Source of the DNA: an uncultured Candidatus Saccharibacteria bacterium
Lineage (GTDB): Bacteria > Patescibacteriota > Saccharimonadia > Saccharimonadales > Saccharimonadaceae
Reading direction: 5' to 3'
Assembly: GCA_964556075.1 (NCBI GenBank)
Contig: CAZKUV010000001.1
Location: forward strand, 1-39,585
DNA: 39,585 bases
Under the pieces are notes generated by a model that ran no database searches, was not told the origin of the DNA, and saw only the letters and a program-made list of their open reading frames with translations. This document shows, in pieces, positions 30,829-35,117 of this stretch. A program made the translations under genes and the position numbers. The stretch's first letter is position 1, and each line of letters opens with the position of its first letter.

Positions 30829-32580
30829 TTAGCGGAAACCGCCGCCACCACCACCGCCGCCTCCGCCAGAGAACCCTCCCCCGACAGACCCTCCCGTAGA
30901 CGAGCTAACCGCACCGGTACGATGTACCGAAGAAGTGAAGCTAGTTATCGCCGAGCTGAACGCTAAAGCGTTAAACGCCTGGTCGCCACTATACCATTCA
31001 GGGGATACTCCCGCTTGTTGATAGTACCTTCCGAGATGTTTCGCCCACGTTCTTTCTTGACGGAATAGTATGGCGTACGGCAGCAATTTTTCATATAGTT
31101 TGATCAGCTGGGCTGGATTAGTCGGATCATTTATGTCTACTTTCTCGGCGCCCTCCGGACTCTGGAGCATGGCGATTCTCTCCTTCTCCGCTACCTTGAT
31201 ATACGTTTCAAGCCCCTTCACCTGTCGCCTGAGACGCAAGCCTTCGTCGGAGAGCACCCAGAGCGTACGACTATAGTAGTACGCGAGCAAACACGGGAGT
31301 ATCATAAACGGACTGAGCGTCAGAATCGACAGGATAAGCAGATACTTCGCCGCTTTTTTAAACCAGTCGCGTTTTTCCTGGTCGATACCTTTGTATCCGT
31401 AGGTGTGTCGCATCAGCTCCTTGAGCTTCTTCTCGTTATCCTGGAACCGAGAAAACACGCTCGAGTCCCCTTCCAGTTTTTTAAGCGGAAGTCGTTCCCC
31501 TACCTTAGGAGTATGTCCGAATAAATCGGTCAGCAATTCTCTCTCTTCATCGAGAAGACCAGCGAGGTCTTTAACAATTTTGATGTCGTATTCAGTGGCA
31601 CGAAAGAGTGGAACTATCGATTTCGAACGAGTCTGCAATATCTGAATGTACCGCTTCACTGCGAGGTCGGTCAGCTCGGCAGCGATCGTCGATTGCAGAT
31701 TGGGCGATACCGCCGCCGCTGCGGCCACACTGACATTACGCGGCGGGATATACTCAGGAACGATTGTTCCCAGTTCGACGTTTCGGTATTTCCAGCGGTT
31801 CGCTAGATATAGGAACAGCGCCAGCAGGATGATAGACAGGATGAGCAGTAACAGATTAATTACCACCCAAATGGTGAATATCCATTCCCATAACGTCTTG
31901 ACGTAGGGCATAAACGTTCCCGACTCAAACCCCACGGCAAGCGAAACGTTCTCATTATAGCCAAGATTCTCGGCGCTCACCAAAAAACCGGTGCTCGTTT
32001 TCGTCACTGCGCATCGCTGAGTCGACCCAAACACCCCTTGATAGCACGCCACATTACCGTTGAGTGCCGGACGCAGGTTTTCATCTAAGATAAGTTCAAC
32101 CGAAAGTTTCTCAATCCTTGATTCCCACTCGGTACCGTTCGTGTCCCAATAGAACTCATCGGCATTGATTCGAGCAACGTGTTGCGTCACGTCGCGCATA
32201 GAGTACTTCAATTCGAAGACCTGCGTGCCACTGATATAGTCGTCGGTCCCCGTCTGAATAACATACTCATCACCTGACGTATATTCAGCGTAGATTGGTT
32301 CAGCAGAGCCGTTTCTCGTCACCGATTCGAACTCGAGACTTAGGGTATGGTTCTGGTACTTCCTAGGGATTCTTCGTTCTATCCCTTTGTTGGTATGTTG
32401 CGGAAACTCCACCGTAATCCGTTCGGTAACCGAAAGAGTCGATCGCCGCTCGTCATCACGACCCAATCTATAGACAATACTATAGTCGCTGATAAACGGC
32501 CGCGTTTGCGCTCCCGCATGCGCTCCGAAACTAGTCGCGCCGATAACGGCGACAACCAGTCCGATGAGAACCCGTTTCAT
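30829..32580 (-). CDS. DUF2207-family membrane protein with C-terminal poly-Gly tail
   Basis: The layout is a signal peptide, a large extracytoplasmic domain, TM helices, a cytoplasmic region, and then the tail SSTGGSVGGGFSGGGGGGGGGGFR typical of DUF2207 proteins (from memory). Confidence 0.82.
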   Translation of the reverse strand: MKRVLIGLVVAVIGATSFGAHAGAQTRPFISDYSIVYRLGRDDERRSTLSVTERITVEFPQHTNKGIERRIPRKYQNHTLSLEFESVTRNGSAEPIYAEYTSGDEYVIQTGTDDYISGTQVFELKYSMRDVTQHVARINADEFYWDTNGTEWESRIEKLSVELILDENLRPALNGNVACYQGVFGSTQRCAVTKTSTGFLVSAENLGYNENVSLAVGFESGTFMPYVKTLWEWIFTIWVVINLLLLILSIILLALFLYLANRWKYRNVELGTIVPEYIPPRNVSVAAAAAVSPNLQSTIAAELTDLAVKRYIQILQTRSKSIVPLFRATEYDIKIVKDLAGLLDEERELLTDLFGHTPKVGERLPLKKLEGDSSVFSRFQDNEKKLKELMRHTYGYKGIDQEKRDWFKKAAKYLLILSILTLSPFMILPCLLAYYYSRTLWVLSDEGLRLRRQVKGLETYIKVAEKERIAMLQSPEGAEKVDINDPTNPAQLIKLYEKLLPYAILFRQERTWAKHLGRYYQQAGVSPEWYSGDQAFNALAFSSAITSFTSSVHRTGAVSSSTGGSVGGGFSGGGGGGGGGGFR

Positions 32581-32647
32581 ACTTCCAAGTGTATCAGACT
32601 ATGAGCTATTATCGGCTCAAAGATACTTCGTTTCATCTCGCAGCGGT

Positions 32648-33001
32648 TTATAGAGCGCTAGAGTTCGCCGCTTCGATTAGATGTTGGTTTGACGAACTGT
32701 CCATGAGAGCTTCGTCGAGTTCATCCCGTGCCGTTATACTATCCCTGTAGTATTGCCTGTTCTTAGGCTTTAACCACCCGCCTAGATATATCCCCTCTTC
32801 GATCAACATGCGTCTATGCTTTTCAATAAAGCACCTAAGAGACTTTCCGAGGTTCCGAGGAGAAACTATTTCGGTTTCGTCAGACAGCGCCGGAACACAC
32901 CAAGTACCACCTCCAGCCTCTTCCACCGTGTCATCGTAACTATACCTACGCGTATTCCCGCCGTTTCGACGAATAGAAGCTAGAATAGAATCGAGTATCA
33001 T
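32648..33001 (-). CDS. hypothetical protein (117 aa), orphan
   Basis: The ORF is intact, with TATAAT (33015-33010) 8 nt upstream of the ATG. I cannot name a family. Confidence 0.55.
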   Translation of the reverse strand: MILDSILASIRRNGGNTRRYSYDDTVEEAGGGTWCVPALSDETEIVSPRNLGKSLRCFIEKHRRMLIEEGIYLGGWLKPKNRQYYRDSITARDELDEALMDSSSNQHLIEAANSSAL

Positions 33002-33037
33002 TAAAACTAATTATATAGAAGTGCACCACTAGTACTT

Positions 33038-33066
33038 TTGACTTCGAGTAGACTTTCGTTTATTAT
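33038..33066 (+). promoter_or_regulatory. near-consensus promoter of the 115-aa orphan gene / ribozyme transcript
   Basis: TTGACT (33038-33043), a 17-nt spacer, then TATTAT (33061-33066). Confidence 0.6.
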
Positions 33067-33131
33067 GCCCTTGCTCATCCAACGAAGGGTGGGCGCACTT
33101 CTCATCAATCCATCCGTCAAGGAGCGCGAAG

Positions 33132-33479
33132 ATGCCTCAAGACACGCCGTCAGTTGCTATCGCCGTCGCCGAGAACTGTATCGGCAACGCCGGATATATC
33201 AGCTTCGACTTCGATACGGAACTGCACGGACACTTCCTGGACGCCCAAATCTATCCGAAAGAAGGATACGTTAAGCGGCCTCTCGACTCGGATTTACTCG
33301 AGCGAATCGTTCGCCGTCTCATCGGCAGACGCTACCCGATACTCTTTATCGATGTCATGCCGATGCGCCTGCGAGTGCACATGTTCACGAGTATCGACGT
33401 CAACGCAATGCTCCACGACATCGCTTTAGCGGCGAATAGTCTGGGATACCAGGTCAACGTCTATGGGAGCGAGCCATAA
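33132..33479 (+). CDS. hypothetical protein (115 aa), orphan
   Basis: An AAGGAG SD lies 7 nt upstream of the ATG, and a strong promoter lies further upstream. I recognise no family. Confidence 0.65.
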   Translation: MPQDTPSVAIAVAENCIGNAGYISFDFDTELHGHFLDAQIYPKEGYVKRPLDSDLLERIVRRLIGRRYPILFIDVMPMRLRVHMFTSIDVNAMLHDIALAANSLGYQVNVYGSEP

Positions 33480-33502
33480 TCAGACACCTCTCCGATAGGC
33501 AA

Positions 33503-33533
33503 GCCGCAGGCACGAAAATACCGTGCCTGCGGC
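33503..33533 (+). other. GC-rich 12-bp stem-loop between the orphan ORF and the ribozyme
   Basis: GCCGCAGGCACG-AAAAUAC-CGUGCCUGCGGC. Neither strand has a U-tract after it. Confidence 0.55.
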
Positions 33534-33560
33534 CAACGTCCCAATGACGGAATGGACTGA

Positions 33561-33617
33561 TGACGCTTCCATAGATGCGTATCTATGCTGATGAGTCCGA
33601 AAGGACGAAAAGCGTCG
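33561..33617 (+). ncRNA. type III hammerhead self-cleaving ribozyme
   Basis: The RNA reads UGACGCUU-C/CAUAGAU-GCGU-AUCUAUG-CUGAUGA-GUCC-GAAA-GGAC-GAA-AAGCGUCG. All invariant core positions (C3-A9, G12-A14, A15.1:U16.1, H17=C33569) and the G10.1:C11.1 pair are present. Helices I (7 bp) and II (4 bp, GAAA loop) are capped and helix III (7 bp plus a G-U) is open. Confidence 0.87.
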
Positions 33618-35117
33618 CTATAAATTAAGGTCTGGATAAATCGCTTTGGTGGTTTCGTCAATTTCGCTTCTGAGCTGTGGGAACGGAACACCCTCGCGAG
33701 CGGTCACTCCTTCGAAAATCCAAAAGACTCGTTCGCTATTCCCCCAACCGCACGCTGGTGGCATGCCGTATTCAAGCATTTCGACATAATCGATATCAAG
33801 CATCATCGCTTCATCGTCGCCAGCGTCGCGCATGTTTTGCTGTTCGACGAACCGCTCCAGTTGATCGATTGGGTCGTTCAGCTCAGAAAAGCCATTCCCG
33901 AGCTCGCTGCCCGCAATGATCGACTGGAAACGCTCTGTCGCGCGCGGATCATCAGGGTTTTCTTTGCTTAGCGGCGAAATGAACTTCGGCGTGTTAACCA
34001 GCCAGACCGGACCGGCAACCCCGGCTCGCACCTTCTTCCATAGCTTGTCGATACCGCGCGGAATGCTGTCGGTCTTCTCGACTTCGAGGTTATGCTCCTT
34101 CAGTTTGGCGGCGACCTCCTCGATTGTCGTGTCATAGACGTCGATGCCATAGTGTTTCTGAATGACTTCGCGGTAATCCCATATCTCCCACTCGCCCGAC
34201 ATATCAATATCGAATTCCCCGAGCTTGAACTGCAAGGTGCCGAAAGTTTCCCGAAGAACATATTTATACATCTCTTCCATGAATCTCATGCCGTCGCGCC
34301 AGTTCCAATAGGCGGCATACCATTCCATAGCAACATGTTCGGGTAGATGCTCGTCGGTATAGTCTTCATTTCTAAACCGAGGACCAATATCATAGACTTT
34401 CTCGAACCCAGCGCCGATAAGACGCTTGAGCGGGAGTTCGTGACTGATACGCAAATAAAAGTCGTGGTCGAGAGTATCCATGTGAGTGACGAACGGATTG
34501 GCGTCAGCTCCACCGGTAGTATGTTCGAGCACCGGAATGTTGATTTCAATAAACCCGTGCTGGTTGAGGAAGTCCCGCGTCGCCTGCCAGAATTTCGAAC
34601 GGCGCACGAACCGCTCTCGAACGTCAAGATTGACGTTCATGTCGACATAACGACGCCTGAAACGCTCTTCCTTGTCGGTGAGTTTTTCTGGGATTGGGCG
34701 CAGCGCCTTGGTGAGAAGTCTCAGAGTCTTTACTCCGACCGAAATCTCCCCGGTCTGCGTCTTCATGACTTCACCAGTCGCCTCAATGAAATCTCCGCTG
34801 TCCAGTAACGGGAGTTCTCTCATGCCGAGGATACCCCTGCTGCCGTCTAGATCCGCCACTTCTCCGGCTCGCAAAAACAACTGCACTTGACCGCTCATAT
34901 CCCTCACGACGATGAACGCCAGCTTGCCGAACTTCCTAATGCCGACAATGCGTCCGGCGACGGTAACCGTCTGCCCTTCGAGCTCGTCGAAGCGTCCGGT
35001 AATATCGGCGGTATGATGGGTTCGGTTACTATCTGCCGGGTATGGGTTCACGCCCAGCCCGCGCAACTCCTCGAGTTTGCGCAGTCGTTCGTCTCGGTAG
35101 TCTTGTAGAGTAGCCAT
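33618..35117 (-). CDS. lysS: lysine--tRNA ligase (class II)
   Basis: An N-terminal OB anticodon-binding domain is followed by a class II core with IGPRFRNEDYTDEHLPEHVAMEWY and GWGNSERV. Confidence 0.95.
   Translation of the reverse strand: MATLQDYRDERLRKLEELRGLGVNPYPADSNRTHHTADITGRFDELEGQTVTVAGRIVGIRKFGKLAFIVVRDMSGQVQLFLRAGEVADLDGSRGILGMRELPLLDSGDFIEATGEVMKTQTGEISVGVKTLRLLTKALRPIPEKLTDKEERFRRRYVDMNVNLDVRERFVRRSKFWQATRDFLNQHGFIEINIPVLEHTTGGADANPFVTHMDTLDHDFYLRISHELPLKRLIGAGFEKVYDIGPRFRNEDYTDEHLPEHVAMEWYAAYWNWRDGMRFMEEMYKYVLRETFGTLQFKLGEFDIDMSGEWEIWDYREVIQKHYGIDVYDTTIEEVAAKLKEHNLEVEKTDSIPRGIDKLWKKVRAGVAGPVWLVNTPKFISPLSKENPDDPRATERFQSIIAGSELGNGFSELNDPIDQLERFVEQQNMRDAGDDEAMMLDIDYVEMLEYGMPPACGWGNSERVFWIFEGVTAREGVPFPQLRSEIDETTKAIYPDLNL

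Follow-up and report, generated by a model that had tools for sequence, protein, structure and literature searches.

A small gene followed by a predicted hammerhead ribozyme in an accessory island beside lysS of an uncultured Candidatus Saccharibacteria bacterium

The DNA analysed here (the window) is a stretch of 39,585 nucleotides (nt), positions 1-39585 of contig C1 (CAZKUV010000001.1) from an uncultured Candidatus Saccharibacteria bacterium (assembly GCA_964556075.1). Its genome, labelled G000 in our comparisons, comprises 738 kb (0.74 Mb) in 66 contigs and is an estimated ~86% complete. Genomes whose lysS resembles that of the window (73-89% identity) mostly bear the label Candidatus Saccharibacteria or Saccharimonadales, and matching DNA was recovered from compost and manure metagenomes. 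The subject of this study is a block of 1,037 nt (32581-33617), bounded on one side by the start of a gene for a DUF2207 membrane protein (30829-32580) and on the other by the stop of a class II lysS (33618-35117), both of them on the minus strand and assigned by gene call and family search. The block holds two divergent small open reading frames (ORFs), ORF1 (117 amino acids (aa), 32648-33001, minus strand) and ORF2 (115 aa, 33132-33479, plus strand), and, downstream of ORF2, a predicted hammerhead ribozyme (33562-33616, plus strand). The surrounding genes run along the minus strand and ORF2 is among the few plus-strand genes there, in agreement with an earlier sequence-based note on this DNA (the original prediction) that had singled out the locus as a rare departure from minus-strand transcription.

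ORF2 sits in a compact cassette whose parts follow one another along the plus strand. A promoter scan places a sigma-70-type promoter (TTGACT-17-TATTAT, 10/12 matches) at 33038-33066. The 5' untranslated region (UTR) carries a leader arm, UCAUCAAUCCAUCCGUCA (33102-33119), which is complementary to 33545-33563, and a Shine-Dalgarno sequence, AAGGAG (33119-33124), which we read from the sequence 7 nt before the ORF2 ATG. Past the gene, inverted repeat I4 and folding mark a perfect 12-bp G+C-rich hairpin (33503-33533; 33503-33514 pairs with 33522-33533). It is followed by CAACGUCCCAAUG with no U-tract and so does not qualify as an intrinsic terminator, and a scan of 32400-33800 found no terminator-like site. 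The 3' arm, UGACGGAAUGGACUGAUGA (33545-33563), complementary to the leader arm, then runs into the ribozyme, overlapping the first 2 nt of its stem III. The original prediction had already described a near-consensus promoter, the AAGGAG, the 12-bp hairpin and then a hammerhead; we located each of these elements, and every other sequence feature that it listed was likewise found in its place.

The ribozyme is defined by its core, its helices, a descriptor scan and a covariance model (R1, below), and its predicted cleavage lies 3' of C33569. Stem III (GACGCUU/AAGCGUC, 7 bp) has the open end and positions the predicted cleavage nucleotide, C17, at 33569. Stem I (CAUAGAU-GCGU-AUCUAUG, 7 bp) and stem II (GUCC-GAAA-GGAC, 4 bp, then GAA) are closed by loops. 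The core sequence CUGAUGA occupies 33588-33594, GAA occupies 33607-33609, and A33610 pairs with U33568 (A15.1-U16.1). Both the conserved core and the three-helix layout of a type III hammerhead, with stems I and II looped and stem III open, are thereby present. Judged by its sequence, the element is a genuine type III hammerhead, for which self-cleavage is predicted. Folding of the 141-nt 3' UTR returns exactly the hairpin and the hammerhead (z = -5.6), and both are invariant among near-identical strains. The ribozyme ends 1 nt short of the convergent lysS stop codon. Rfam model RF00008 (Hammerhead_3) gives a local match over model positions 7-48 with 29.2 bits (E 8e-4), against a gathering score of 48.5, so Rfam-based annotation would miss this hammerhead. 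The low score reflects the seed of the model; no defining nucleotide is missing. The last ORF2 codons (33460-33471) are complementary at 11 of 12 positions to 33564-33575, the region around the cleavage site that includes the 5' strands of stems III and I, and their pairing could form a fold that competes with the active ribozyme.

The hammerhead is one member of a large family. We built R1 from two copies, that of the window and that of a genome of the same genus (G001). Among 201 genomes of the same taxonomic family it finds one to five copies in 77 (38%), which represent 45 of 95 genera; in a phylum-wide sample of 401 genomes, 29 have copies. In an alignment of 33 copies (A4) 96.5% of cells are paired, the core is invariant and 16 of 18 base pairs show compensatory, both-side changes; none of 500 shuffles reached these values, and slid controls were 30-44% paired. 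A descriptor scan of the whole window genome revealed a second good type III hammerhead, on contig C10, which RF00008 does not report at E<=1; the same scan for type I and II hammerheads gave only one poor type II candidate, on C26. A wastewater metatranscriptome contig (run X27) matches only the 43-nt hammerhead core (window 33568-33610) between unrelated flanks, indicating that the hammerhead of some relative is present in RNA there.

We analysed the context of 93 ribozyme copies, with genes called simply as longest ORFs. The copies are intergenic. In 75 of 91 loci a gene on the same strand precedes the ribozyme, most often ending 30-190 nt before it; the downstream gene is co-directional or convergent about equally often. 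As with lysS in the window, a convergent stop codon lies no more than 5 nt from the ribozyme end in 14 of 93 loci, and a perfect stem of at least 10 bp occurs within 110 nt upstream of the ribozyme in 36 of 93. The proteins encoded upstream include 58 singletons among 75. Only ~13/75 have a Pfam domain (Tad4-like in two, with DUF4419, DUF350, GT2, HIT and NUDIX among the others), the ~80% without one being stated with no genome-wide baseline, and ~20/75 match PHROGs families, mostly of unknown function. The two Tad4 matches belong to alignment A5 of genes upstream of relatives' hammerheads (best E 6.5e-24); Tad4 is an inhibitor of type I Thoeris defence. Three further matches in A5 are to a PHROG 'virion structural protein' family.

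ORF2 has a gene-like hexamer coding score of 0.29 and differs among near-identical strains by one nonsynonymous and three synonymous changes, few in total. A word-indexed protein search with ORF2 returned only near-identical strains (99%), and a scan of genome contigs with a two-sequence ORF2 alignment found no relatives. A HMMER profile made from ORF2 and its G001 homologue, run against 1.8 billion representatives, collected 54 clusters, 19 of them at E<=1e-10. These proteins are 100-150 aa long and share the motif FDxRLxxRGTDFxVYANTGY...D..LL (alignment A7). ORF2 is thus a member of an undescribed protein family, for which Pfam gave no match, a PDB sequence profile search nothing meaningful and IMG/VR viral contigs no match to the family alignment. 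Its members are rare: among the 201 genomes from the taxonomic family 6 have one, and among the 401 from the order 3 do. AlphaFold2 run without an alignment (predicted local distance difference test (pLDDT) 62.7) models residues 34-111 of ORF2 as a beta-alpha-beta-beta-alpha-beta, ferredoxin-like fold, and Foldseek of this model against the PDB returned generic ferredoxin-like matches only (best E 0.014). Among these generic folds was the HUH transposase TnpA of IS200/IS605 (E 0.03-0.07, TM ~0.4), an identity that we rejected: the sole candidate motif, 'VHM/VHA', is not H-hydrophobic-H, and there is no Pfam match.

The ORF2 family is tied strictly to the ribozyme. An R1 hammerhead lies 69-95 nt past the stop of every intact ORF2-family gene with DNA context, namely those of L189, L198/L199, L201, L200 (where the contig end cuts it), L202/L203, G151, G001 and the window. 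In G001 the ORF2 homologue is 31% identical; behind it come a 14-bp hairpin, unrelated in sequence, and then a hammerhead identical at 51 of 55 positions, with a compensatory G-C to A-U change in stem III; homology between the two loci stops at the 3' end of the ribozyme. Two further genomes carry altered versions. In G015 (L193 1348-1405, minus strand) a degenerate hammerhead with a ~35-nt insertion in stem II, scoring 17.5 bits, lies behind an ORF2-family gene and may be a decaying or variant ribozyme, and in G119 the ORF2-family copy is frameshifted and the hammerhead is 1.3 kb away. The G001 cassette sits between rpsB and an MBL-fold hydrolase gene, and L198 has the order rpsB (minus), ORF2-family gene (plus), hammerhead, LigT/2',5'-RNA-ligase-family gene (plus) and, further on, L31. 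A LigT-family gene neighbours the ORF2-hammerhead cassette in L189 as well. In the window genome the rpsB-MBL gap, which lies outside the window (contig C1:43997-45236; L188 700-1940), is occupied instead by two genes: one is type IV pilin-like, and the other encodes a LigT-like 2H phosphoesterase that has two HxT motifs. Hammerhead cleavage produces RNA with a 2',3'-cyclic-phosphate end, the kind of end on which LigT-type enzymes act.

Upon alignment of the ORF2-family cassettes, the flanking elements proved to be conserved together with gene and ribozyme. TTGAC-type promoters lie upstream of the homologous cassettes too, and all ORF2-family cassettes have a long hairpin at the same position, of different sequence. 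The leader arm recurs as (C)AAUCCAUCCAUC in the other cassettes; the aligned cassettes share the leader motif (GCGCAC..)UCAAUCCAUCCAUC, whose reverse complement, GAUGGAUGGAUUGA, stands 0-3 nt before hammerhead stem III. CCGUC/GACGG in the arms of the window corresponds to CCAUC/GAUGG in other cassettes, a compensatory change, and the G001 arms contain two G-U pairs. Across nine cassettes the duplex between leader and 3' arm has energies of -20 to -38 kcal/mol; the L202 arms are GUCAAUCCAUU and AAUGGAUUGAC. For the predicted 497-nt mRNA of the window, taken to begin near 33073 and to end where the ribozyme would cut, at 33569, both the minimum-free-energy and the centroid fold contain the panhandle formed by the two arms (z = -4.6). 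We extended this comparison to 90 hammerhead loci, matching the 24 nt before each ribozyme with its own upstream region and with cross-locus controls. Complementarity beats 95% of controls in 26 of 90 loci (4.5 expected) and 99% of controls in 15 of 90 (0.9 expected). A second arm class, UGACAAGCAGACAG / CUGUCUGCUUGUCA, is recurrent, with its leader arm ~45-50 nt downstream of a TTGACx-17-TAtAAT promoter.

The six-part layout of promoter, leader arm, ORF, U-less hairpin, complementary 3' arm and type III hammerhead is complete in the window and is common to C10, G001, L189, L198, L201 and L202. The C10 cassette, whose ribozyme lies at C10:8830-8885 on the minus strand (L003 1495-1550), uses the same TTGACT-17-TATTAT hexamers and has a long 5' UTR hairpin, a 13-bp hairpin, the arms GACAGCAG/CUGCUGUC, and 13 nt between the ribozyme and a convergent stop codon. 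With a hexamer score of ~0, the 73-aa ORF of this cassette may be foreign or non-coding.

Expression was assessed from Logan contigs of compost metatranscriptomes, which are unstranded. In one metatranscriptome, ORF2 is covered over 33132-33507 at a depth of 13-15, the top depth in 20 kb. The RNA contigs break at the hairpin, and the next contig, at depth 3.0, spans 33533 through the ribozyme into lysS (lysS depth 3.3); the depth thus falls about four-fold (13 to 3) at the hairpin, in assembled contigs that cannot resolve exact transcript ends. A second run covers 33227-33405. The RNA check named in the original prediction accordingly finds ORF2 transcribed, whereas ORF1, like DUF2207, has no RNA contig in the compost metatranscriptome. 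The small ORF of C10 is covered by an RNA contig and its neighbours are uncovered. The depth of ORF2 relative to its neighbours, together with the drop to the lysS level, indicates that ORF2 is transcribed more strongly and that little transcription continues into lysS.

In many of 80 relatives DUF2207 begins ~37-45 nt after lysS (the gap is 267 nt in G001). The block of 1,037 nt has therefore been inserted into the ancestral lysS-DUF2207 junction, which answers the synteny check named in the original prediction, whether the ~1 kb is an insertion. None of the 80 lysS loci of relatives has a hammerhead. We found no recombinase, transposase or integrase near the block, and no target-site duplication or flanking direct repeat at it. 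A transposon or miniature inverted-repeat transposable element bounded by terminal inverted repeats was considered and rejected: the arms are inverted, but promoter and ribozyme lie outside them, and neither target-site duplication nor transposase is present.

The second gene of the block, ORF1, encodes a small, fast-evolving protein that belongs to a Patescibacteria family without characterised members. Its hexamer score is borderline (0.18), its frame by far the best of the six, and among near-identical strains it shows three nonsynonymous changes and one synonymous, few in total. The TATAAT box (33010-33015, minus strand) read 8 nt before its ATG, as first described in the original prediction, implies a leaderless or near-leaderless start; the promoter scan reported no -35 match for it. 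The AlphaFold2 model of ORF1 (pLDDT 42.7) is too poor to be suitable for a fold search. The 40 close relatives have no ORF1 homologue. Distant homologues of 129-131 aa occur in other Patescibacteria families (32% identity in G631, E 1e-7, and 29%), share GGxT and YLGxWxNP motifs, and have no hammerhead nearby. The resemblance that the original prediction saw between ORF1 and small proteins from phages or plasmids of actinobacteria is not supported: tblastn with ORF1 against 50,697 phage and 72,556 plasmid records gave no match, and its homologues are in other Patescibacteria. ORF1, ORF2 and the C10 ORF have no match in Pfam, PHROGs, NCBIfam or PADLOC, so far in keeping with the description of the locus as an orphan cassette whose proteins could be assigned to no family; yet both ORF1 and ORF2 have uncharacterised homologues, which makes 'orphan' too strong. 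A toxin-antitoxin or defence pair made of ORF1 and ORF2 was rejected on the lack of any PADLOC, Pfam or NCBIfam match and on the divergent arrangement of the genes, which are not co-transcribed.

A related island lies beside lysS in L202/L203, where the lysS C-terminus is 95% identical to that of the window. Downstream of lysS these loci carry a Phd-like/Fic pair, an MmeI_N fragment, a 221-aa gene and then the hammerhead with an ORF2 homologue (36%), followed by two small genes and finally a homologue of ORF1 (36% identity, E 2e-19). Two lineages therefore have ORF1, ORF2 and the ribozyme together at the same lysS-side island, diverging far faster than lysS. The Phd/AbrB-like and Fic/Doc pair and the MmeI_N fragment (L202 3051-3921) mark the site as a hot spot for accessory and conflict genes. 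Because both proteins diverge so extremely next to a 95%-conserved lysS, their sequences suggest a role in conflict or host interaction. The rpsB-linked subtype (G001, L189, L198, L201) is without ORF1. The co-occurrence of ORFs and hammerhead raised in the original prediction hence holds for every intact ORF2-family gene with DNA context, and for ORF1 too in L202/L203, but not for ORF1 in the rpsB-linked loci; ORF1 is probably a second, divergent accessory gene linked only in the lysS-island ORF2 subtype. Likewise, of the single small accessory or mobile-origin module envisaged there, the accessory insertion stands, as does the unit of ORF2, hairpin and hammerhead, which is conserved as one; ORF1 falls outside that unit in most other cassettes, and a mobile origin has no direct evidence in its favour, with no recombinase, no target-site duplication and no ORF2-family member in IMG/VR. 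Elsewhere in the window, the sole Rfam family at threshold is a SAM-I riboswitch (RF00162, 1619-1721, minus strand), which scores 69.1 bits, above its gathering score; Rfam matches to mir-2057, M23 and snoRNA in the region are weak, and we treated them as chance.

These data point to a model for how the ORF2 message ends. We think it probable that the block is a hypervariable accessory island of a compost Saccharibacteria bacterium, at its core a self-contained, strongly promoted and hammerhead-capped ORF2 cassette of a type often met in this lineage, in which cleavage makes the 3' end of the mRNA and pairing between leader and tail closes the message. RNA polymerase would read through the U-less hairpin, and the hammerhead would then fold and cut after C33569, freeing an ORF2 mRNA with a 2',3'-cyclic-phosphate end. 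By this proposal, release through cleavage would leave little ORF2 transcription to run on as antisense into lysS. The leader arm would pair with the 3' arm to form a panhandle, and panhandle and hairpin together should shield both ends from exonucleases, giving high expression. The observations under this model are the anatomy, the conservation, the covariation of the ribozyme, the complementarity of the arms, the linkage of ORF2 to the hammerhead, the insertion, the transcription of ORF2 and the depth drop. From these we infer that cleavage takes place, that the panhandle forms in vivo and stabilises the message, and that the ribozyme may have a part in termination. A second role, in terminating transcription or in insulating lysS from it, is compatible with the model.

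Several points weigh against this model. The RNA evidence consists of unstranded assembler contigs whose depth is rough and whose break at the hairpin is technical, and the depth drop also fits termination or trimming at the hairpin without action of the ribozyme. The window ribozyme scores below the RF00008 gathering threshold. Measured against the 95% control level, complementarity stands out in only ~29% of the hammerhead loci. The arms are also an inverted repeat in DNA, and a test of G-U versus A-C asymmetry, meant to separate RNA-level from DNA-level selection on them, was swamped by noise from weak alignment. Finally, the leader arm is made before the ribozyme and could compete with stem III, and the segment at 33460-33471 is complementary to the region of the cleavage site as well, so that the pairing might regulate or inhibit cleavage rather than act after it.

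An explanation that overlaps with our model and differs from it in emphasis, and which we regard as unlikely when taken alone, makes the ribozyme a co-transcriptional terminator or insulator: the 5'-OH fragment would be degraded, for example by a 5'-exonuclease of the RNase J type, the polymerase would be dislodged and lysS, an essential gene, would be spared antisense, with the panhandle secondary. RNase J1 accepts the 5'-OH products of the glmS ribozyme as substrates, and in Bacillus subtilis it is able to resolve polymerases that have stalled. The position of the ribozyme end, 1 nt from the lysS stop here and within 5 nt of a convergent stop in 14 of 93 family members, speaks for such a role, as do the hairpins without U-tracts, the lack of a terminator-like site at the locus and a depth past the hairpin that equals that of lysS and not that of ORF2. 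About half of the family members, however, precede a co-directional gene, which termination would silence, and the conserved complementarity of leader and 3' arm would go unexplained. In another reading the arms work in DNA, either as the terminal inverted repeats of a small non-autonomous element or as its recombination sites. Such an element would carry cargo genes from one intergenic hot spot to another, the hammerhead being a passenger or a relic of a phage or other element. The location of the cassette does differ between two species of the genus (lysS-DUF2207 in G000, rpsB-MBL in G001), its cargo is very diverse (the singletons, the Pfam-less majority, the PHROGs matches and the two Tad4-like proteins), and class A arms start with TG and end with CA. 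We nevertheless hold a mobile cassette to be decidedly improbable: the arms do not enclose the promoter, which is beyond the left one, or the ribozyme, which is beyond the right one, although these two parts are conserved along with the cassette; no transposase or integrase is nearby and no target-site duplication was found; the ORF2 family is absent from IMG/VR; the G-U pairs in the G001 arms fit pairing in RNA; and the helices of the ribozyme covary as RNA.

Least probable of all, in our view, is a 3' UTR ribozyme that lowers or switches expression, with cleavage removing a protective 3' end and the leader arm or 33460-33471 competing with stems I and III, tuning cleavage by translation. The 3' UTR hammerheads of mammalian CLEC2 genes offer a precedent, since their cleavage lowers expression. 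In the window, the pairing of 33460-33471 with 33564-33575 (11/12) overlaps the cleavage site, and 'GGGCG' of the leader can pair with the 5' strand of stem III. The RNA depth of ORF2 is nonetheless the highest in 20 kb, the stable hairpin stays on the 5' product after cleavage, and G001 does not preserve the 33460-33471 complement as such, having only 6 matching nt.

Returning to the hammerhead-capped message, we can extend it to a wider proposal, which we put forward tentatively and with less than even confidence: in Saccharibacteria, and sparsely in other Patescibacteria, hammerheads, in place of terminators, may provide a dedicated way of ending the messages of strongly promoted, fast-evolving accessory genes, with the leader arm clamping the new end into a panhandle. 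The shared framework, made up of promoter and leader before the gene and of 3' arm and hammerhead behind it, could serve as portable homology through which genomes swap cargo, and ORF1 and ORF2 would be cargo under conflict, for example with the actinobacterial host or with phages. Whatever their role, the analysis flags two undescribed small-protein families that evolve very rapidly and that, in this episymbiotic bacterium, are encoded next to a housekeeping gene, in a hypervariable island. The ORF2 locus is a compact case for testing bacterial hammerhead function, with one promoter, a small gene, a hairpin, a ribozyme and a complementary leader and tail. Public metatranscriptome support and the strict evolutionary link of one protein family to the ribozyme aid its testability.

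The cassette resembles several known systems in part. Like an intrinsic (Rho-independent) terminator, it has a G+C-rich hairpin shortly after the stop codon, at the end of the transcription unit; unlike one, it has no U-tract, and a ribozyme lies ~28 nt after the hairpin. As in the glmS ribozyme and eukaryotic co-transcriptional cleavage elements, self-cleavage of the nascent mRNA is predicted to give a downstream fragment whose 5'-OH exonucleases can attack. The glmS ribozyme lies in the 5' UTR and depends on a metabolite, whereas the window hammerhead lies in the 3' UTR. Base pairing between the 5' and 3' UTRs is known from bacterial mRNAs such as icaR of Staphylococcus aureus and hbs of Bacillus subtilis, where the 3' end comes from a terminator and the usual effect of pairing is to repress translation or to guide RNase III. 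Here, too, a stretch of the 3' UTR is predicted to pair with the leader of its own mRNA; in contrast to icaR and hbs, the ribozyme would make the 3' end and the arms adjoin the cleavage site.

The closest comparison is with published bacterial hammerheads, whose role has been open since their genomic discovery in 2010-2011 (PMC3088659, PMC6155905). Type III hammerheads of bacteria and prophages flank small non-conserved ORFs, and their suggested role is to cut transcripts to gene length (Perreault et al. 2011, PMC3088659; de la Pena et al. 2017 review, PMC6155905). A full-text literature search found no paper naming both 'hammerhead ribozyme' and 'Saccharibacteria'. The window element shares with the published hammerheads the catalytic core, the three-helix junction, an intergenic site beside small, non-conserved genes of unknown function and the role suggested for it. 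It differs in that a single ribozyme accompanies each gene, always on its 3' side, whereas prophages have flanking pairs; in having no prophage context and a compact 55-nt form below the Rfam gathering score; in the U-less hairpin and the 3' arm complementary to the mRNA leader that precede the ribozyme; and in its high frequency within one lineage, 38% of the genomes of a Saccharibacteria family. The link of hammerheads to small non-conserved ORFs is already known, and the capped cassette with leader and tail arms is a new form of that link.

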